Shown here: one piece after another, positions 1 to 30,250 of the stretch
Layout: every line of letters starts with the position of its first letter
Position numbering within the stretch: position 1 is the stretch's first letter
IMG/VR virus record: IMGVR_UViG_2609459863_000015
Origin: a virus
Taxonomy: Duplodnaviria > Heunggongvirae > Uroviricota > Caudoviricetes
Length of the DNA: 30,250 nucleotides
Reading direction: 5' to 3' (one strand)
The notes under the pieces: generated by a model
Seen by the model: only the letters and a program-made list of their open reading frames with translations
The model's database searches: none
What the model was told of the DNA's origin: nothing
Program-made: the position numbers and the translations under genes

Positions 1-99
1 GTAATACGTTGACGGGGCAATATGCAGTTCGCTGCATAGCGGTCCGACCCCGTACTGCTCACGCAGCTTATCCAGCAGTGGCATCATTTTTTCCAGAGG
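1..99 (-). CDS. IS3-family transposase OrfB, N-terminal fragment (window-truncated), in the -1 frame overlapping the orfA stop
   Basis: Minus-strand translation of 1..99 gives [33 protein letters not shown], the typical N-terminus of an IS3-family OrfB. An A-rich run (GGAAAAAATGATG) at the orfA/orfB overlap is consistent with the programmed -1 frameshift window of this family. Confidence 0.6.
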
Positions 100-410
100 C
101 GGTCGAACTCCGCCTTCGCAAAATAAGCGGAAGCCTGGCGAAGGATATCGTTACTGCGGCGCAGTTCACGATTTTCACGTTCCAGCTCTTTCAGACGCTG
201 ACGTTCAGCGGTGGTGAGCCCGCCATCACCGCCTCCGGTATCCCGCTCATGCTGGCGTACCCAGACACGCAGAGTCTCCGGTGTACAGCCAATCTTTGGA
301 GCAATGGAACAAATTGCCGCCCACTGTGAGTCATATTCGCCCTGACTTTCCAGAACCATACGAATCGCCCTCTGACGGACTTCGGGGGAAAAACGAGTAT
401 TTTTAGTCAT
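84..410 (-). CDS. IS3-family transposase OrfA (helix-turn-helix plus leucine-zipper protein)
   Basis: 108 aa [64 protein letters not shown]...[26 protein letters not shown] matches IS629/IS1203 OrfA from memory. Confidence 0.85.
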
Positions 411-466
411 CCTGTTTACCTCTTTCTCAGGAAGTTTAGTCTCCAGGATTCCCGGGGCGGTTCACA

Positions 467-628: not shown

Positions 629-911
629 TTTGAGAAAAGCAGCGCGTAGTCGGGAATGCCAGGTAAGAATCCCTGGCGTATGTAATGGCAACCCTGAAAC
701 GTCTGTACTGGCACATATCCGGCTGACTGGATTGTGCGGCACCGGTACCAAACCGCCAGACCTGATTGCCACCATTGCATGTTCTGCCTGCCACGACGAA
801 ATCGACCGCCGCACACATTTTGTCGATGCTGCATATGCAAAAGAATGCGCGCTGGAAGGTATGGCGAGAACACAGGTTATCTGGCTGAAAGAGGGGGTTA
901 TTAAGGCGTGA
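621..911 (+). CDS. ybcO: DUF1364-family nin-region protein (YbcO-like, putative nuclease)
   Basis: ORF 582..911; the likely true start is the ATG at 621 ([26 protein letters not shown]...), preceded by AGGAGG at 611..616. Cys/His-rich. Its stop overlaps the rusA GTG start (GTGA). Confidence 0.7.
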
Positions 912-1270
912 ATACCTACAGCATCACATTACCCTGGCCTCCGAGCAATAATCGCTATTACCGCCATAATCGCGGGCGCACGCACGTCAGCGCAGAGGGG
1001 CAGGCATACCGCGATAACGTCGCCCGAATCATTAAAAACGCAATGCTGGATATCGGCCTGGCTATGCCTGTGAAAATCCGCATTGAGTGCCACATGCCGG
1101 ATCGCCGTCGCCGTGACCTGGATAATCTGCAAAAAGCCGCTTTTGACGCACTCACTAAAGCAGGTTTCTGGCTGGATGATGCTCAGGTCGTTGATTACCG
1201 CGTTGTGAAGATGCCTGTTACCAAAGGTGGGAGGCTGGAACTGACCATCACCGAAATGGGGAATGAATGA
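908..1270 (+). CDS. rusA: RusA crossover junction endodeoxyribonuclease (Holliday junction resolvase)
   Basis: 120 aa, [38 protein letters not shown]...[31 protein letters not shown]; matches E. coli RusA from memory. GTG start. Confidence 0.9.
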
Positions 1271-2064: not shown

Positions 2065-3147
2065 TTAGAACTGGTAAACCATACCTACAGCAACGATATC
2101 ATCGGTAGCAACGCCAGATGCTTTCGTGAAATCGCTCTTATCAATCAGGTTGATTTTGTAGTCAACAAAAGTGGACATATTTTTGTTGAAGTAATAGGTT
2201 GCACCTACATCAACATATTCAACCAGGTCCTGATCACCCCAAACACCCAAGTCTTTTCCTTTAGAATGCAGGTAAGCAACGGATGGACGCAGGCCGAAGT
2301 CGAACTGATATTGTGCAACAGCTTCGAAGTTTTGTGCTTTGTTGGCAATATGGTTATTACCAAAAACAGTCATGTTCTGGGTTTCAGAATAGGTGGTGGC
2401 CAGATAGATGTTGTTCGCATCATATTTCAGACCAGCTGCCCATACTTCAGCATTTTGACCAGAAGCATTCAGACCGTTGTTACCGTAGATAACCTGATTA
2501 TTAGTGCGATCAGATTTAGCATAGGTTGCACCCACGCCGAATCCTTCATACTCATAAGTAGTTGAGAAACCGAAACCATCGCCATTAGCTTCAGTTACTT
2601 CATTTCGGTCATTTTTGCCCTGATACTGAGCTGCAAAGTTCAGGCCATCAACCAGACCAAAGAAGTCGTTGTTACGATAAGTTGCAACACCTGTGGTGCG
2701 ACCAGTCATGAATACATCTGTTTGGGTCCAGGTATCGCCACCGAATTCTGGCAGAACGTCAGTCCACGCACCGATGTCGTATGCTACACCGTAGTTACGG
2801 CCGTAATCGATTGAGCCGTAGTCACCGAATTTCAGGCCTGCAAATGCAAGACGGGTTTTGTCTTTGGAGGAACCTTGAGATTCAGCGCGGTTGCCTTTGA
2901 ATTCATATTCCCACTGACCGAAACCAGTCAGTTGATCGTTGATTTGGGTTTCACCTTTGAAGCCAAGACGGGCATAAGTAGTATCACCATCATCTGCATC
3001 ATTAGAGGAGAAGTAGTGCTTAGCATTAACTTTCCCGTACAGATCCAGCTTGTTACTGTCTTTATTATAAATTTCAGCTGCCTGAGCAGACATCGCCATC
3101 AGTACTGATGCAGCTACAGCAGAAATTGCCACTGTTAATTTTTTCAT
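2065..3147 (-). CDS. nmpC: Outer-membrane porin, NmpC/Lc (OmpC family), phage-borne moron, apparently intact
   Basis: 360 aa with signal peptide [40 protein letters not shown]... and C-terminal ...VAVGMVYQF (terminal Phe typical of OMPs). Matches NmpC from memory. Opposite strand to the flanking Q and lysis genes. Confidence 0.88.
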
Positions 3148-5609: not shown

Positions 5610-5748
5610 TGGCAAACGCAAAACTGCGTTATCGAAAAAATCAAAGCATTACTAGAACTGAGCAACGGCTATCCATTACAAAGCCCATCTACGGGTGGGC
5701 TTGATAATGGCTTATACCCTGCACGGGATAACTTAACTGATATCCCTT

Positions 5749-5913
5749 TTAACGGATAAAGGCATTCAAGCCTGACACATCATGCGCTGTATCGTCGCCG
5801 TATTCCCGTATTAACAGAGACCGTAGCCCGACGGGGAACTCCTTCTGCGCGAGTGTGCGGGAATAATCAAAAACGATGCACACCGGGGTTACCGGGTACA
5901 CATATTTCATCAT
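5749..5913 (-). CDS. Hypothetical small protein (54 aa), possible third gene of the minus-strand cassette
   Basis: Not in the ORF track. Minus-strand ATGATG at 5913/5910, translation MMKYVYPVTPVCIVFDYSRTLAQKEFPVGLRSLLIREYGDDTAHDVSGLNAFIR*. Starts 45 nt after the DUF1398 stop. Weak RBS, no homology recalled. Confidence 0.2.
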   Translation of the reverse strand: MMKYVYPVTPVCIVFDYSRTLAQKEFPVGLRSLLIREYGDDTAHDVSGLNAFIR

Positions 5914-5958
5914 GCCAGCGAGTCCGGTTCTGGCACGGAAGAAACCGGACGTTATGAT

Positions 5959-6369
5959 TTAGTGCGGAAATATTTGTGTAGTGTTCTGAATGTTCTCAGT
6001 AAAGAGTAATGAATTATCAAAGGTATAGTAATACCTTTTGTTTTCGTGGATATTTGTAATCCATCTGAAAACCCCTGCTGTAGCAAGATTTTTCCTGTAT
6101 TCGTAAAATGATAACTCTCCTGATTTGAATCCTTTTAAGGTGGCTTCTATAAGGCATTTATTTTTTGAAAATCTTACATTTACAACCTTACCCTGTCCTT
6201 TTATTAAAACCGTATTATCGTTTTCAAGAACAAGATGAATATTCTCTGTAGCTAAATAGTAAATGTAATGTGAGACATTGTGACGTTTTAGTTCAGAATA
6301 AAACCAGTGATAGTTTAAATTATTTCGCACTTTATCGAATATTTGTTTAAAAATGGCAACCTGAGCCAT
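5959..6369 (-). CDS. ybcV: DUF1398-family protein (YbcV/YdfO-like), function unknown
   Basis: ORF 5959..6384; the likely start is the internal Met ([58 protein letters not shown]...) with AAGG upstream. Very AT-rich coding sequence. Resembles DLP12 YbcV and Qin YdfO from memory. Confidence 0.65.

Positions 6370-7567: not shown

Positions 7568-7593
<26 letters not shown>
7048..7593 (+). CDS. Nu1: Terminase small subunit Nu1
   Basis: 181 aa MEVNKKQLADIFGASIRTIQNWQEQGMPVLRGGGKGNEVLYDSAAVIKWYAERDAE...; matches lambda gpNu1 from memory. Starts 189 nt after cosN, as in lambda. Confidence 0.92.
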
Positions 7594-11274
<3,681 letters not shown>

Positions 11275-22359: not shown

Positions 22360-25300
22360 ATGGGTAAAGGCAGCAGTAAGGGGCATACCCCGCGCGAAGC
22401 GAAAGATAACCTGAAGTCCACGCAGCTGCTGAGTGTGATCGATGCCATCAGCGAAGGGCCGGTTGAAGGTCCGGTGGATGGATTAAAAAGCGTGCTGCTG
22501 AACAGTACGCCGGTGCTGGACAGTGAGGGGAATACCAATATATCCGGCGTCACGGTGGTGTTCCGGGCCGGTGAGCAGGAGCAGACACCGCCGGAGGGAT
22601 TTGAATCCTCCGGCTCCGAGACGGTGCTCGGTACAGAAGTGAAATATGACACGCCGATCACCCGGACCATCACGTCGGCAAACATTGACCGTCTGCGTTT
22701 TACTTTCGGCGTGCAGGCACTGGTGGAAACCACCTCAAAGGGGGACAGGAATCCATCGGAAGTCCGCCTGCTGGTTCAGATACAACGTAACGGTGGCTGG
22801 GTGACGGAAAAAGACATCACCATTAAGGGTAAAACCACTTCACAGTATCTGGCCTCGGTGGTGGTGGATAACCTGCCGCCGCGCCCGTTTAATATCCGGA
22901 TGCGCAGGATGACGCCGGACAGCACCACAGACCAGCTGCAGAACAAAACGCTCTGGTCGTCATACACCGAAATTATCGATGTGAAACAGTGCTACCCGAA
23001 CACGGCACTGGTCGGCGTGCAGGTGGACTCGGAGCAGTTCGGCAGCCAGCAGGTGAGCCGTAATTATCATCTGCGCGGGCGTATTCTGCAGGTGCCGTCG
23101 AATTATAACCCGCAGACGCGGCAATACAGCGGTATCTGGGACGGAACGTTTAAACCGGCATACAGCAACAACCCGGCCTGGTGTCTGTGGGATATGCTGA
23201 CCCATCCGCGCTACGGCATGGGGAAACGTCTTGGTGCGGTGGATGTGGATAAATGGGCGCTGTATCTTATCGGCCAGTACTGCGACCAGTCAGTGCCGGA
23301 CGGCTTTGGCGGCACGGAGCCGCGCATCACCTGTAATGCCTGGCTGACCACACAGCGTAAGGCGTGGGATGTGCTCAGTGATTTCTGCTCTGCGATGCGC
23401 TGTATGCCGGTATGGAACGGGCAGACGCTGACGTTCGTGCAGGACCGACCGTCGGATAAGGTGTGGACCTATAACCGCAGTAATGTGGTGATGCCGGATG
23501 ATGGTGCGCCGTTCCGCTACAGCTTCAGCGCCCTGAAGGACCGCCATAATGCCGTTGAGGTGAACTGGATTGACCCGAATAACGGCTGGGAGACGGCGAC
23601 AGAGCTTGTGGAGGACACGCAGGCCATTGCCCGTTACGGTCGTAACGTCACGAAGATGGATGCTTTTGGCTGTACCAGCCGGGGGCAGGCACACCGCGCC
23701 GGGCTGTGGCTGATTAAAACAGAACTGCTGGAAACGCAGACCGTGGACTTCAGCGTGGGTGCCGAAGGGCTTCGCCATGTACCGGGCGATGTCATTGAAA
23801 TCTGCGATGATGACTATGCCGGTATCCGCACCGGCGGGCGCGTGCTGGCGGTGAACAGCCAGACCCGGACGCTGACGCTCGACCGTGAAATCACGCTGCC
23901 ATCCTCCGGTACCACGCTGATAAGCCTGGTTGACGGAAGTGGTAATCCGGTCAGCGTGGAGGTTCAGTCCGTCACCGACGGCGTGAAGGTGAAAGTGAGC
24001 CGTGTTCCTGACGGCGTTGCTGAATACAGCGTATGGGGGCTGAAGCTGCCGACGTTGCGCCAGCGCCTGTTCCGCTGCGTGAGTATCCGTGAGAACGACG
24101 ACGGCACGTATGCCATCACCGCCGTGCAGCATGTACCGGAAAAAGAGGCCATCGTGGATAACGGGGCGCACTTTGACGGCGACCAGAGCGGCACGGTAAA
24201 TGGTGTCACGCCGCCAGCGGTGCAGCACCTGACCGCAGAAGTCACCGCAGACAGCGGGGAATACCAGGTGCTGGCGCGCTGGGACACGCCGAAGGTGGTG
24301 AAGGGCGTGAGCTTCCTGCTTCGCCTGACCGTGGCAGCGGATGACGGCCGTGAGCGGCTGGTCAGCACGGCCCGGACGACGGAAACCACTTACCGCTTCA
24401 CACAACTGGCTCTGGGGAACTACAGGCTGACAGTCCGGGCAGTAAATGCGTGGGGGCAGCAGGGCGATCCGGCGTCGGTATCGTTCCGGATTGCCGCACC
24501 GGCAGCGCCGTCGCGGATTGAGCTGACGCCGGGCTATTTTCAGATAACCGCCACGCCGCATCTTGCGGTTTATGACCCGACGGTACAGTTTGAGTTCTGG
24601 TTCTCGGAAAAACGGATTGCGGATATCAGGCAGGTTGAAACCAGCGCGCGTTATCTTGGTACGGCACTGTACTGGATAGCCGCCAGTATCAATATCAAAC
24701 CGGGCCATGATTATTATTTTTACGTTCGCAGTGTGAACACCGTTGGCAAATCGGCATTCGTGGAGGCTGTCGGTCAGCCGAGTGATGATGCATCAGGCTA
24801 TCTGGATTTTTTCAAAGGCGAGATAGGGAAAACCCATCTGGCTCAGGAGCTGTGGACGCAGATTGATAACGGTCAGCTTGCGCCTGACCTGACTGAAATC
24901 AGGACGTCCATAACGGATGTCAGCAATGAAATAACACAGACCGTCAATAAGAAACTGGAAGACCAGAGTGCAGCGATCCAGCAGATACAGAAGGTTCAGG
25001 TTGATACAAATAATAACCTGAACAGCATGTGGGCAGTGAAGCTGCAGCAGATGCAGGACGGACGCCTTTATATTGCGGGTATCGGTGCCGGTATTGAGAA
25101 CACCCCTGACGGCATGCAGAGTCAGGTGCTGCTGGCAGCAGACAGGATTGCGATGATTAATCCTGCGAATGGCAACACAAAGCCGATGTTTGTTGGTCAG
25201 GGCGATCAGATATTCATGAATGAAGTGTTCCTGAAACGCCTGACGGCCCCCACCATTACCAGCGGCGGTAATCCTCCGGCATTTTCCCTGACATCAGACG

Positions 25301-25857
25301 GGAGACTGACGGCGAAAAATGCGGATATCAGTGGCAGTGTGAATGCGAACTCAGGAACGCTCAACAATGTCACGATTAACCAGAACTGTACGATTAAGGG
25401 CATGCTGGAGGCGACCCAGGTCAGAGGAGATTTCGTTAAAGCTGTATCAAAAGCCTTCCCGAAAAAAGTCGGTACGTGGGGTAACACGGAAACACCAAAC
25501 GGTACGGTTACAGTCACCATCAGCGATGATCATAACTTTGACCGCCAGATTATTATTCCGCCCATTATTTTTAACGGTATAGCGTATGACGATCCGGGGA
25601 GCGGAAATAACCCAGGAGGCACGCGATACACGGGTTATGGTTTTGAAGTTCGCAAAAACGGCGTATTAATCGCATCCAGAGAAACTAAAGGGGCCATTCC
25701 CGGTAGTTACAGTGCAGTTATTGATATGCCGAGTGGCAGGGGAAGCGTCACTCTGGAGTTTAAGATTTTCCAGAAAGGCAATCAGGGGGCAGGCAATATC
25801 ACCGACTGTACGGTGATTGTGACCAAAAAAGCCGCTTCCGGCATCAGTATTCGTTGA
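22360..25857 (+). CDS. J: Tail tip / central tail fibre host-specificity protein J; C-terminal receptor-binding region divergent from lambda
   Basis: 1165 aa. N-terminal about 800 aa match lambda gpJ ([34 protein letters not shown]...). After ...[13 protein letters not shown] the sequence is mosaic relative to my memory of lambda J: conserved island [28 protein letters not shown]...[15 protein letters not shown], divergent distal end. Confidence 0.88.
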
Positions 25858-26527: not shown

Positions 26528-26554
26528 TTAGCCAGGTAACACAGTGTTATGACA

Positions 26555-26581
26555 GCCCGCCGGTTCAGGCGGGCTTTTTTG
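26555..26581 (+). terminator. Rho-independent terminator downstream of lom
   Basis: GCCCGCC-GGTTCA-GGCGGGC followed by TTTTTT. Confidence 0.6.
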
Positions 26582-26585
26582 TGGG

Positions 26586-29500
26586 GTGAATATGGCAGTA
26601 AAGATTTCAGGTGTACTGAAAGACGGCACAGGAAAACCGGTACAGAACTGCACAATCCAGCTGAAAGCAAAACGTAACAGCACCACGGTGGTGGTGAACA
26701 CGCTGGCCTCAGAAAATCCGGATGAAGCCGGGCGTTACAGCATGGACGTTGAGTACGGGCAGTACAGCGTTATTCTGTTGGTGGAGGGATTCCCGCCGTC
26801 ACATGCCGGGACCATCACCGTGTATGAAGATTCCCGACCCGGTACGCTGAATGATTTTCTCGGTGCCATGACGGAGGATGATGCCCGTCCTGAGGCACTG
26901 CGCCGTTTTGAACTGATGGTGGAAGAGGTGGCGCGTAACGCGTCCGCGGTGGCACAGAACACGGCAGCCGCGAAGAAGTCAGCCAGCGATGCCGGCACAT
27001 CAGCACGTGAGGCGGCAACCCATGCGACTGATGCTGCAGGCTCAGCACGCGCAGCCAGCACATCAGCCGGGCAGGCCGCGACGTCGGCTCAGTCAGCGTC
27101 TTCCAGCGCAGGAACGGCATCAACAAAGGCTACTGAAGCATCAAAAAGTGCTGCCGCTGCAGAGTCCTCAAAAAGCGCGGCAGCTACCAGTGCCGGTGCG
27201 GCGAAAACGTCAGAAACGAATGCGGCAGCGTCACAAAAATCTACAGCCACTTCTGCATCCGCAGCGACCACAAAGGCGTCAGAAGCTGCCACCTCAGCCC
27301 GGGATGCGGCGGCCTCAAAAGAGGCAGCGAAATCATCAGAAACGAACGCATCATCAAGCGCCAGTAGTGCCGCTTCCTCGGCAACGGCGGCAGGAAATTC
27401 CGCGAAGGCGGCAAAGACGTCTGAGACGAACGCCAGGTCTTCTGAAACGGCAGCGGGACAGAGTGCCTCAGCTGCGGCAGGCTCAAAAACAGCGGCTGCA
27501 TCATCTGCCAGTGCCGCCTCAACAAGTGCCGGGCAGGCCTCAGCCAGTGCCACCGCTGCCGGAAAGTCGGCAGAAAGTGCCGCCTCGTCTGCTTCAACAG
27601 CCACAACGAAGGCTGGCGAAGCCACTGAACAGGCCAGTGCAGCAGCGAGGTCTGCTTCCGCAGCGAAGACATCCGAGACGAACGCGAAAGCGTCGGAAAC
27701 CAGCGCAGAATCCTCAAAAACGGCTGCCGCATCGTCCGCCAGTTCGGCGGCTTCATCGGCATCATCGGCGTCAGCTTCAAAAGATGAGGCGACCAGACAG
27801 GCGTCAGCAGCGAAGGGCAGCGCCACGACAGCATCCACGAAGGCGACAGAGGCTGCTGGCAGTGCGACAGCGGCAGCACAGAGCAAAAGTACGGCAGAAA
27901 CCGCGGCAACGCGCGCCGAGACAGCGGCAAAACGGGCAGAGGATATTGCATCCGCCGTGGCGCTTGAGGATGCGAGCACGACGAAAAAGGGGATAGTCCA
28001 GCTCAGTAGTGCGACCAACAGCACTTCCGAGTCACAGGCGGCAACGCCAAAAGCCGTTAAGGCCGCGTATGACCTGGCTAACGGGAAATACACCGCACAG
28101 GATGCAACGACAGCACAGAAAGGGATAATCCAGTTAAGCAGCGCGACCAACAGCACGTCTGAAACGCTGGCGGCAACGCCAAAGGCAGTAAAAGCAGCCA
28201 ATGACAATGCTGAGAAACGTCTGCAGAAAGATCAGAACGGTGCGGATATCCCTGGCAAAGACACCTTTACGAAAAATATTGGTGCCTGCCGTGCCTTCGG
28301 TGGGTCAGTAAGCACAACAACAGGAAACTGGACGACTGCACAGTTTATCGAGTGGCTGGATTCTCAGGGAGCATTTAACCATCCCTACTGGATGTGCAAG
28401 GGGTCCTGGTCTTATGGCAATAATAAAATCATTACTGATACTGACTGCGGTAATATTCATCTCGCCGGAGCTGTCATTGAAGTAATGGGGATAAAGTCAG
28501 CGATGACGATCCGCATTACCACACCGACCACCTCCACTGGTGGTGGAACAACTAACGCCCAGTTTACCTATATTAATCACGGAACAGATTATTCACCTGG
28601 CTGGCGAAGGGACTATAACTCCAGAAATAAGCCAACGGCATCAGAGATCGGGGCGTTACCGTCAGGTGGAACAGCAGTATCATCAGTTAATCTGGCTTCA
28701 AAAGGTCGGGTAACCGCGCTGACAGACAATACGCAGGGGGCAGCAGGTCTTGAGTTATACGAGGTGTATAACAACGGATATCCAACAGCGTATGGAAATA
28801 TCATTCACCTGAAAGGGATGACAGCCGTTGGCGAAGGTGAGTTACTCATCGGCTGGAGGGGTACAAGCGGTGCTCATGCTCCGGCATTTATTCGTTCACG
28901 ACGGGATATGACCGACGCAAACTGGTCGCCGTGGGCGCAGCTTTACACCTCGGCTCATCCTCCTGCAGAGTTTTATCCAGTCGGTGCACCAATCCCGTGG
29001 CCATCAGATACCGTTCCGTCTGGTTATGCCCTGATGCAGGGGCAGACTTTTGACAAATCTGCTTACCCGAAACTTGCAGCCGCTTATCCGTCAGGCGTGA
29101 TCCCTGATATGCGTGGCTGGACGATTAAGGGCAAGCCCGCCAGTGGTCGTGCCGTATTGTCTCAGGAACAGGATGGCATTAAATCGCATACCCACAGCGC
29201 CAGCGCATCCAGTACGGATTTGGGGACGAAAACCACATCATCTTTTGATTACGGCACTAAATCCACGAATAACACTGGTGCACATACCCATAGTATTAGC
29301 GGGACAGCAAATAGTGCCGGTGCGCACCAACACAAGAGTTCCGGTGCATTTGGTGGCACGAACACGAGCATTTTTCCTAATGGTTATACTGCGATTTCAA
29401 ATCTAAGCGCGGGGATTATGAGCACAACAAGCGGTAGTGGCCAGACTCGTAATGCAGGGAAGACATCATCAGATGGTGCTCATACCCACTCGCTGTCCGG

Positions 29501-29666
29501 CACTGCTGCAAGCGCAGGCGCACATGCACATACTGTCGGTATTGGTGCTCATACGCACTCCGTTGCGATTGGCTCACATGGACATACCATCACCGTTAAC
29601 GCTGCGGGTAACGCGGAAAACACCGTCAAAAACATCGCATTTAACTATATTGTGAGGCTTGCATAA
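26586..29666 (+). CDS. stf: Side tail fibre protein Stf, intact, with extended Ala/Ser/Thr-rich repeat region and His-rich (HxH) C-terminal receptor-binding domain
   Basis: 1026 aa. N-terminus [39 protein letters not shown]... matches lambda Stf. Central low-complexity repeats (AAKTSETNA..., about 26940..27960), duplicated [27 protein letters not shown] fibre-repeat motifs, and GAHTHS / GAHAH / GSHGH motifs near the C-terminus. Confidence 0.85.
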
Positions 29667-30250
29667 TGGCATTCAGAATGAGTGAACAACCACGGACCAT
29701 AAAAATTTATAATCTGCTGGCCGGAACTAATGAATTTATTGGTGAAGGTGATGCATATATTCCGTCTCATACAGGTCTGCCAGCAAACAGTACCGATATT
29801 GCACCGCCGGATATTCCGGCAGGCTTCGTGGCTGTTTTCAACAGTGATGAGGCATCGTGGCATCTCGTTGAAGACCATCGGGGTAAAACGGTTTATGACG
29901 TGGCTTCCGGCGACGCGTTATTTATTTCTGAACTCGGTCCGTTACCGGAAAATGTTACCTGGTTGTCGCCGGGAGGGGAATATCAGAAGTGGAACGGCAC
30001 AGCCTGGGTGAAAGATGCAGAAGCAGAAAAACTGTTCCGGATCCGGGAGGCGGAAGAAACAAAAAACAGCCTGATGCAGGTAGCCAGTGAGCATATTGCG
30101 CCGCTTCAGGATGCTGCAGATCTGGAAATTGCAACGGAGGAAGAAACCTCGTTGCTGGAAGCCTGGAAGAAGTATCGGGTGTTGCTGAACCGTGTTAATA
30201 CAACAACTGCACCGGATATTGAATGGCCAACAGTACCCATTATCGAATAG
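29666..30250 (+). CDS. tfa: Tail fibre assembly protein Tfa
   Basis: 194 aa [79 protein letters not shown]...; lambda Tfa-like. Start overlaps the stf stop (TAATG). Stop codon is at the very end of the window. Confidence 0.88.

Follow-up and report, generated by a model that had tools for sequence, protein, structure and literature searches.

The right end of the 30,250-nt DNA analysed here (the window, IMG/VR virus record IMGVR_UViG_2609459863_000015) very probably carries the side tail fibre gene stf and its partner tfa, which end the late operon of a lambda-like siphophage and work as side fibre and chaperone. Judged from its alignments, the fibre protein Stf is a mosaic: a lambda N-terminal domain and rod are joined to two fibre repeats, a shaft of the Mu/P1/P2 type and a needle of the T4 gp37 type. 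The block of Stf that is rich in Ala, Ser and Thr is a long alpha-helical, phase-coherent, heptad coiled-coil rod. In comparison with its relatives, the long rod is the standard form and the lambda rod a short outlier. The two genes are as follows.

26592..29666, plus strand: stf, side tail fibre gene, 1024 codons plus stop (list of open reading frames (ORFs), Pfam, PHROGs)
29666..30250, plus strand: tfa, tail fibre assembly chaperone gene, 194 codons from an ATG; the window ends on its stop codon

The stf frame is uninterrupted, as a preliminary description of this DNA had stated, and reads 26586..29666 with 1026 codons when it is opened at an alternative in-frame GTG at 26586. The true start is likely to be the ATG at 26592, which predicts a protein of 1024 amino acids (aa). 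This codon is preferred because it is used in RefSeq and in lambda and because a GGGG Shine-Dalgarno-like run lies 6 nt upstream. The RefSeq coding sequence WP_001387657.1 starts at the equivalent ATG, and its product differs from the Stf of the window by 1 residue. The stop codon of stf and the start codon of tfa share 1 nt (TAATG), which bears out the reported overlap of the two genes. The contrast drawn with laboratory lambda is also right: in J02459, stf is split as orf-401/orf-314, whereas the lambda record with intact stf, KT232076, which served as our reference, gives 774 aa. The families found agree with both gene names. Pfam returned PF08400 (a full-length match at aa 1-134, E = 1.4e-71), two stretches of PF03406 and PF07484 on Stf, and PHROGs assigned the protein to phrog_295 (tail fibre, E = 1.6e-245). 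Tfa carries PF02413 (Caudo_TAP, E = 2.2e-42), belongs to phrog_105 (E = 1.4e-98) and is 95% identical to lambda Tfa. A search of NCBIfam with Stf and Tfa gave no family. As a member of its family, Tfa should serve as chaperone for the distal fibre trimer.

The prophage type is lambda-like, of E. coli, and the gene order J-lom-stf-tfa closes its late region, both in the ORF list and in the RefSeq annotation of the same prophage. The late operon of the window follows the order of that of lambda and runs Nu1, A, W, B, C, D, E, FI, FII, Z, U, V, G, T, H, M, L, K, I, J, lom, stf, tfa, and all 23 frames are open. A near-identical stf-tfa module, labelled side tail fibre, is also found in phage records that name a propagation host, among them PhiR42_1 and mEp460_ev081. 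The Stf of PhiR42_1 is 93% identical over its full length, and mEp460_ev081 is 96% identical at the DNA level. From these 93-96% identical genes in sequenced phages, a function of Stf and Tfa in fibre making is likely. With such relatives and 23 open late frames, the earlier expectation that this prophage can probably make side tail fibres is reasonable. A literature search for a paper on the PhiR ECOR phages returned nothing usable.

The following parts were distinguished along the protein.

26592..26873, plus strand: N-terminal tail-attachment (collar) domain, aa 1-94 (PDB 9E7M residues 1-94, E = 1.3e-51)
26889..27974, plus strand: proximal coiled-coil rod, about 50 uninterrupted heptads xxSAxxA, aa ~100-461 (autocorrelation, Fourier phase, AlphaFold2 (AF2))
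27975..28229, plus strand: two Phage_fiber_2 repeats (KGI[VI]...), aa 462-546 (PF03406, 2 stretches, E = 5.2e-37)
28206..28961, plus strand: shaft module of the Mu S' (gp52) / P1 Sv' / P7 S / P2 H type, aa ~539-790 (PDB 8JU3, tblastn)
28971..29663, plus strand: T4 gp37-type needle tip, aa 794-1024 (PDB 2XGF, chain 28-242, E = 5.2e-83)
29334..29480, plus strand: variable tip cassette of 49 aa, aa 915-963, between the third and fourth HxH motifs

The Ala/Ser/Thr-rich block was found in the range given for it before (~26940..27960), and AAKTSETNA-type units recur in it. By composition it covers aa ~117-462 (nt ~26940-27977) and consists of Ala, Ser and Thr to 70-83%. A block of this composition, with no bulky hydrophobic residues at its core positions, might be taken for an intrinsically disordered, flexible low-complexity linker and not for a structured rod. 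However, it keeps a strict 7-residue period over ~360 residues with no phase slip. When aa 100-461 were written in rows of seven, they stood in a single unbroken register, with Ala, Val or Phe in the seventh column of every row except one. Residue autocorrelation was 0.36-0.41 at all multiples of 7 up to 63 (z = 7.5-10.8 against shuffles), and elsewhere it did not exceed background. The heptad-register tracker that we applied first was ambiguous, with Ala in both core positions, 3-4 residues apart; it was kept for the rod extents only and Fourier phase analysis was used instead. The coherence of Ala at 3.5 residues was 0.446 across 361 residues (aa 100-460), compared with at most 0.10 at neighbouring periods. 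The Ala phase drifted by less than half a residue along the rod, that is, there was no stutter or stammer. The AF2 single-sequence model of aa 95-470 is of moderate confidence (mean predicted local distance difference test (pLDDT) 73.6) and is broken by two low-confidence turns, as a linker might be, but ~95% of its residues are helical (aa 98-382 and 396-469). The block aligns with the proximal coiled-coil part of Ur-lambda Stf. In that protein, residues 102-393 form a trimeric coiled coil according to cryo-electron microscopy and tomography with AlphaFold3 modelling, and this part is a rigid body in the cryo-electron data (PMC12617516). Natural deletions of at least one heptad are, in addition, mostly whole-heptad. 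We regard a disordered linker as very improbable and keep the reading of the block as a coiled-coil rod.

The rod is longer than that of lambda, as had been suspected, by 105 aa. In the alignment with Ur-lambda the difference is a single clean insertion of 15 heptads, and the register is continuous across it.

27501..27815, plus strand: in-phase rod segment absent from lambda, 315 nt, aa 304-408 (alignment, sharp junctions)

The preliminary description had seen in the block a degenerate tandem repeat at the nucleotide level, expanded and prone to recombination. Taken at its strongest, this would be a DNA tandem repeat of the contingency type, recently expanded and often changing in length. Exact-seed repeat families do occur in the block; they are short (16-41 nt), 60-88% identical and spaced mostly at multiples of 21 nt. 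Tandem Repeats Finder at a low threshold, however, returned one array only.

27748..27773, plus strand: 9-bp tandem repeat CGGCATCAT, 2.9 copies, encoding SSA units inside the coiled coil (Tandem Repeats Finder)

This array is polymorphic by +/-3 aa, with one SSA unit fewer or more in relatives (e.g. P0021 and P0041); the rod length is changed by -3 in 12 clusters and by +3 in 5. A change of 1 unit would move the heptad register by three residues. There is no nucleotide-level repeat beyond the heptad pattern, because the 21-nt periodicity of the DNA equals that of synonymous-codon shuffles that keep the protein (z -1.8 to +2.0).

Rod length was also compared between conserved anchors (the first ELMVEEVA), which lie 342 aa apart in the window and 237 in lambda. 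The distance is not that of the modal rod in 40 of 113 close cluster representatives, whole-heptad deletions included, as a repeat of changing length might give. Against this, exactly 342 aa was found in the remaining 73 and in 62 of the 64 IMG/VR loci that have both anchors, regardless of the distal module. The total length of Stf in these loci ranges from 804 to 1176 aa, a width that comes from differing distal modules. Whole-heptad departures from the modal rod were five, all of them deletions (-7, -14, -21, -28 and -70 aa), and the other variants are small, a change of +/-3 aa at the 9-bp SSA repeat being the commonest. The 315-nt segment itself argues against a recent expansion, as it has no in-register match elsewhere in the rod above 53% identity. 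At a coverage of at least 80%, 67% of the complete E. coli genomes (3654 of 5426) contain it, with a median of one copy and a maximum of seven; the identity is mostly 95-99%. Phage records with the segment number 21. To judge from this distribution and divergence, the segment is old and diverged. By Tandem Repeats Finder, synonymous shuffles and the conserved modal rod length, no DNA-level tandem repeat or contingency locus was found in the block, and we hold a recently expanded repeat of this type to be quite improbable. Of the earlier claim, a weak proneness to recombination stands, in the form of rare whole-heptad deletions and slippage at one 9-bp repeat, while the rod hardly departs from 342 aa. 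The word "expanded" does not fit a length that is modal among relatives and from which lambda departs by being short. An assembly artefact in the repeat length, which had been left as a possibility, is excluded by the same sequence in more than 16 independently finished genomes.

The coiled-coil rod of the window is thus the standard form and lambda the exception, because 342 aa is modal irrespective of the distal module. Laboratory lambda and Ur-lambda are then atypical, with a rod that falls 15 heptads short of the form carried by two thirds of the E. coli genomes. Two routes to the length difference were considered and rejected. A recent duplication of neighbouring rod as the origin of the 315-nt segment does not agree with its best match of 53%. 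A deletion between two copies of a repeated peptide, as the origin of the short lambda rod, does not agree with the spacing of these copies, which is 77 aa and not 105. In distant members of the family, the Ala/Ser/Thr-rich stretch ranges from ~25 to 384 aa (50%-identity representatives that share the N-terminal domain). A rod length that is heptad-quantised, conserved at one mode and so variable at greater distance might suggest a tuned molecular ruler. In such a case the 15 extra heptads (~16 nm) would set the reach of the side fibre beyond the central J fibre, through O-antigen or capsule. The short rod of lambda would have arisen by adaptation to a rough, K-12-like host, or by accident in one, and the 9-bp SSA repeat would, by its three-residue register shift, fine-tune twist or azimuth. 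This idea is speculative and we consider it unlikely.

Long ORFs in several frames and on both strands had been reported over the rod region, and the ORF list does contain them: 335 aa on the plus strand and 372, 236, 108 and 103 aa on the minus strand. The length of the largest three, together with orf206b, which lies antisense to orf-401 in the original lambda annotation, might suggest that ORFs such as that at 27089..28207 (minus strand, 372 aa) are genuine overlapping genes. The rod has C at codon position 2 in 65% of cases and T in 3%. Frames +1 and -1 contain 1 stop each, and codon-shuffled rods are nearly as stop-poor in these frames (means 1.9 and 1.7). Frame -2 is stop-poorer than the shuffles (3 vs 9.8), yet it still contains stops. 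Each alternative frame of distal stf, in contrast, is interrupted by 12-23 stops. None of these ORFs is annotated in RefSeq. Overlapping genes are hardly credible here, and the shadow ORFs follow from the rod composition. Since a low-complexity rod of this kind leads to long spurious ORFs, gene callers should ignore them.

Beyond the rod, the protein changes its relatives. Similarity to lambda Stf is high over aa 1-490, absent over aa ~491-793 and high again from aa 794, save for the tip cassette. There are two Phage_fiber_2 repeats here and one in lambda, and the second copy lies where the similarity to lambda fades (aa ~491 onward). The module that follows matches PDB 8JU3, identified in a figure legend as Mu gp52, the S' fibre (whole-chain E = 2.4e-84; best stretch aa 539-695, E = 3e-68; also aa 492-565). 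The residues aa 539-695 are ~80% identical to residues 178-334 of Mu S' by eye, not computed, and the fibre repeat matches Mu S' as well. When aa 530-800 were used as a tblastn query, P1 Sv' was 72% identical over 92% of the query (aa ~540-787), P7 S was 71% identical and P2 gpH variants were ~82% identical over the first 158 aa (aa 530-687). The module is also present in SfMu and SSU5. The fibres of Mu, P1, P7 and P2 differ from Stf in being myophage fibres with other N-termini and other distal tips. Moreover, those of Mu, P1 and P7 lie in invertible segments, and none is present in the window, which stops at tfa.

The mosaic middle (the extra fibre repeat and the Mu S'/P1 Sv'-type module) and the variable tip cassette were absent from the preliminary description. 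That lambda, P1, P2, Mu and T4 exchange fibre modules has been established for a long time. An arrangement of this kind has also been engineered: a lambda-P2 side tail fibre chimera, fused at R393 of lambda Stf, ~10 residues past the fibre repeat of lambda, was functional (Brodel et al., Nature 2024). Both proteins set the lambda N-terminus and rod on a P2-type distal fibre, and the natural mosaic of the window switches partner near the same place. However, the chimera is engineered and ends in the P2 H tip, whereas the Stf of the window is natural and ends in a gp37-type tip. The module boundaries found here (after the fibre repeats, at the collar and on both sides of the tip cassette) may be regarded as natural splice points for fibre chimeras.

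The whole crystallised tip of T4 gp37 (2XGF) is aligned by aa 794-1024 of Stf, and the collar domain is shared (aa 798-845, PF07484, E = 6.5e-12). The last 160 residues contain seven HxH motifs, at aa 866, 898, 912, 964, 978, 987 and 996. Their spacing is 32,14,52,14,9,9, compared with 32,14,37,14,9,9 in T4 gp37, which also has seven. The sole difference spans the tip cassette, which is 15 aa longer here than in T4 and unrelated to it in sequence. In T4 gp37, HxH motifs coordinate seven Fe ions in the needle, as known from crystallography in the literature. The metal-binding fibre tip suggested earlier from the HxH motifs is well supported by homology to this iron-binding tip (E = 5e-83). The two fibres differ in their chaperones, lambda-type Tfa here and gp38/gp57A in T4, and in that the fibre of the window is mounted on a siphophage tail by a lambda-type N-terminal domain and coiled coil.

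The centre of the cassette, at roughly aa 916-954, is aligned to residues 932-959 of gp37, the T4 tip subdomain; the remainder aligns with flanking stem residues. This T4 subdomain contacts lipopolysaccharide (LPS) and OmpC (PMC6957217). The slot is filled by at least 10 unrelated cassettes, 32-53 aa long, among 169 tip-bearing Stf relatives, database homologues of >92% identity included, and the seven HxH motifs are kept in 163 of the 169. The cassette at aa 915-963 is therefore likely to be the specificity determinant and is presumed to form the receptor-contact surface. Ur-lambda Stf binds OmpC (PMC12617516; also Brodel et al., Nature 2024). It would be unsafe to take OmpC as the receptor for the Stf of the window, because its tip cassette differs from that of lambda.

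Ur-lambda Stf (774 aa) and its Tfa are the named system closest at hand. Their place in the genome, after J and lom, is the same, the N-terminal domains hardly differ, the shared part of the rod has ~86% nt identity, and a fibre repeat, the gp37-like collar, the HxH tip and the last 30 residues are held in common. The differences, besides the longer rod and the second fibre repeat, are that the distal segment of lambda (about aa 390-545) is replaced here by the unrelated ~250-aa Mu/P1/P2-type module, that the tip has seven HxH motifs and not eight, and that it bears another cassette.

On these likenesses a way of working can be proposed. Reading the region as side fibre and chaperone rests on what is shown here: the open frames and their order, the homologies of the domains, the period and phase of the heptads, the spacing of the motifs, the boundaries of the mosaic and the distribution among genomes. 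Homology to Ur-lambda, T4 and Mu would extend this reading to the trimer, metal binding, docking of the N-terminal domain, receptor identity, fibre assembly and Tfa-dependent folding. Ur-lambda Stf is a homotrimer, present as four fibres per virion, and speeds adsorption; its N-terminal domain has a role in a dodecameric collar (PMC12617516). By this homology the Stf of the window would trimerise and dock at the junction of tail tube and tip through aa 1-94. A flexible linker would then lead into a long parallel coiled coil of ~50 heptads with Ala and Ser in its core positions. The rod, ~53 nm long (359 residues at 0.148 nm each, compared with ~38 nm for 254 residues in Ur-lambda) and ~15-16 nm longer than that of lambda, would hold the receptor-binding end off the tail. 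After the two fibre repeats the chain would pass into the shaft common to the fibres of Mu, P1, P7 and P2. In the needle of the T4 gp37 type, seven HxH motifs per chain would build seven six-histidine layers with one metal ion each (iron in T4), which would stiffen it. The 49-aa cassette would form the extreme tip, an exchangeable specificity determinant that probably contacts porin and/or LPS core. Tfa, translationally coupled through the TAATG overlap, would fold the distal trimer. The complete side fibre would speed reversible adsorption to an outer-membrane receptor before J binds its own.

Whether the module still works in its prophage has to be weighed against decay. The stf-tfa stretch has 1 mismatch in 3665 nt to the lambdoid prophage of E. 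coli 55989 and of the O104:H4 outbreak lineage, which in both is integrated at the attachment site of lambda, with ybhC on one side and ybhB-bioA on the other. Elsewhere the window is ~99.9% identical to 55989, with 17 substitutions and 1 indel in 23.7 kb. No exact match to the window was found among the genomes in the collection, the 55989/O104:H4 prophage being at ~99.9%. In the records of 55989 and O104:H4 C227-11, the closest complete genomes, the large terminase gene and rusA are annotated as frameshifted. In the window, one additional base relative to 55989 at 9224 and another at 994 leave both frames intact.

7568..9493: large terminase gene, 641 aa, GTG start; intact in the window
908..1270: rusA; intact in the window

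Because these frames are intact here and annotated as frameshifted pseudogenes in 55989 and C227-11, the window comes from a less decayed copy of the 55989/O104:H4 prophage.

The frameshifts in 55989 and C227-11, and the dispensability of side fibres for plaque formation in lambda (PMC12617516), would suit a decaying remnant in a defective prophage, in which no fibres are made and the stf frame is merely not yet broken. However, both frames and all late frames are open in the window, and near-identical genes occur in the sequenced phages with named propagation hosts. The 3-kb stf frame is, moreover, strongly conserved across thousands of genomes, which argues for purifying selection. Stf ends early, by hundreds of residues, in 3 of 80 IMG/VR loci (L033, L046 and L060), and fragments are common among the cluster representatives. 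We consider decay improbable, and prefer a working side fibre and chaperone.

Several points nevertheless weigh against this reading. The same prophage is probably defective in 55989 and C227-11, where its terminase and rusA genes are frameshifted (the frames of the window are intact). The sole mismatch in stf-tfa, at 28859 (G in the window, T in 55989), makes the change S756R in the P1 Sv'-like module of Stf, at a position that is Ser in 55989 and in 18 of 18 homologues inspected (GWSGTSG). The AF2 model is a single-sequence monomer of moderate confidence (pLDDT 73.6, predicted template modelling score 0.27) and is uninformative on the oligomeric state. The tip cassette is unrelated in sequence to those of lambda and T4, so that the receptor cannot be deduced from them. 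Expression and assembly of the fibres are inferred from homology.

The annotation reached here is correct but ordinary, since each of its elements was already known. The gene is present in RefSeq (WP_001387657.1) and in phages as "side tail fiber protein", and its importance beyond correct annotation is small. The architecture of lambda Stf was published in 2025 (PMC12617516), and the gp37 tip with the iron sites at its HxH motifs is textbook knowledge.

Some neighbouring features deserve mention. A possible transcription terminator lies in the gap between lom and stf, and a near-identical sequence stands upstream of lambda stf.

26554..26585, plus strand: strong hairpin resembling an intrinsic terminator, with T-run, 8-bp stem with 7 GC pairs, TTTTTTGTGGG tail (terminator scan)

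Positions 1..463 of the window do not align to the otherwise 99.9% identical 55989/O104:H4 prophage. These 463 nt suggest that the nin-region module of the window differs from that of 55989/O104:H4. The J protein (22360..25857) has 1165 aa compared with 1132 annotated for lambda, and at its receptor-binding end (the last ~256 residues) it shares only 53% identity with lambda J; the primary receptor of J may be other than LamB. Lom is 45% identical to lambda Lom. In phage PhiR42_1, a gene for a serine recombinase of the PinQ/PinR type follows tfa (5658..6248), which hints at an invertible fibre segment, now or formerly, in some relatives. No comparable recombinase gene or invertible segment is visible in the window, which stops at tfa. 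In 55989 and O104:H4, a gene for a sensor-domain diguanylate cyclase lies directly after tfa on the opposite strand, before ybhB/attR (23739..25070 of the 55989 locus). As it stands at the place of the lambda b region, this gene may be prophage cargo.

A general porin gene of 360 aa (2065..3147, minus strand) is flanked by the Q-like antiterminator and the lysis genes. The NCBIfam subfamily "porin OmpC" scores it at 515 bits against a cutoff of 484, and its RefSeq name in 55989 is ompC. The same position is taken by nmpC in DLP12 and by lc in phage PA-2. A prophage-borne porin beside a fibre with OmpC-targeting relatives could bear on superinfection exclusion.

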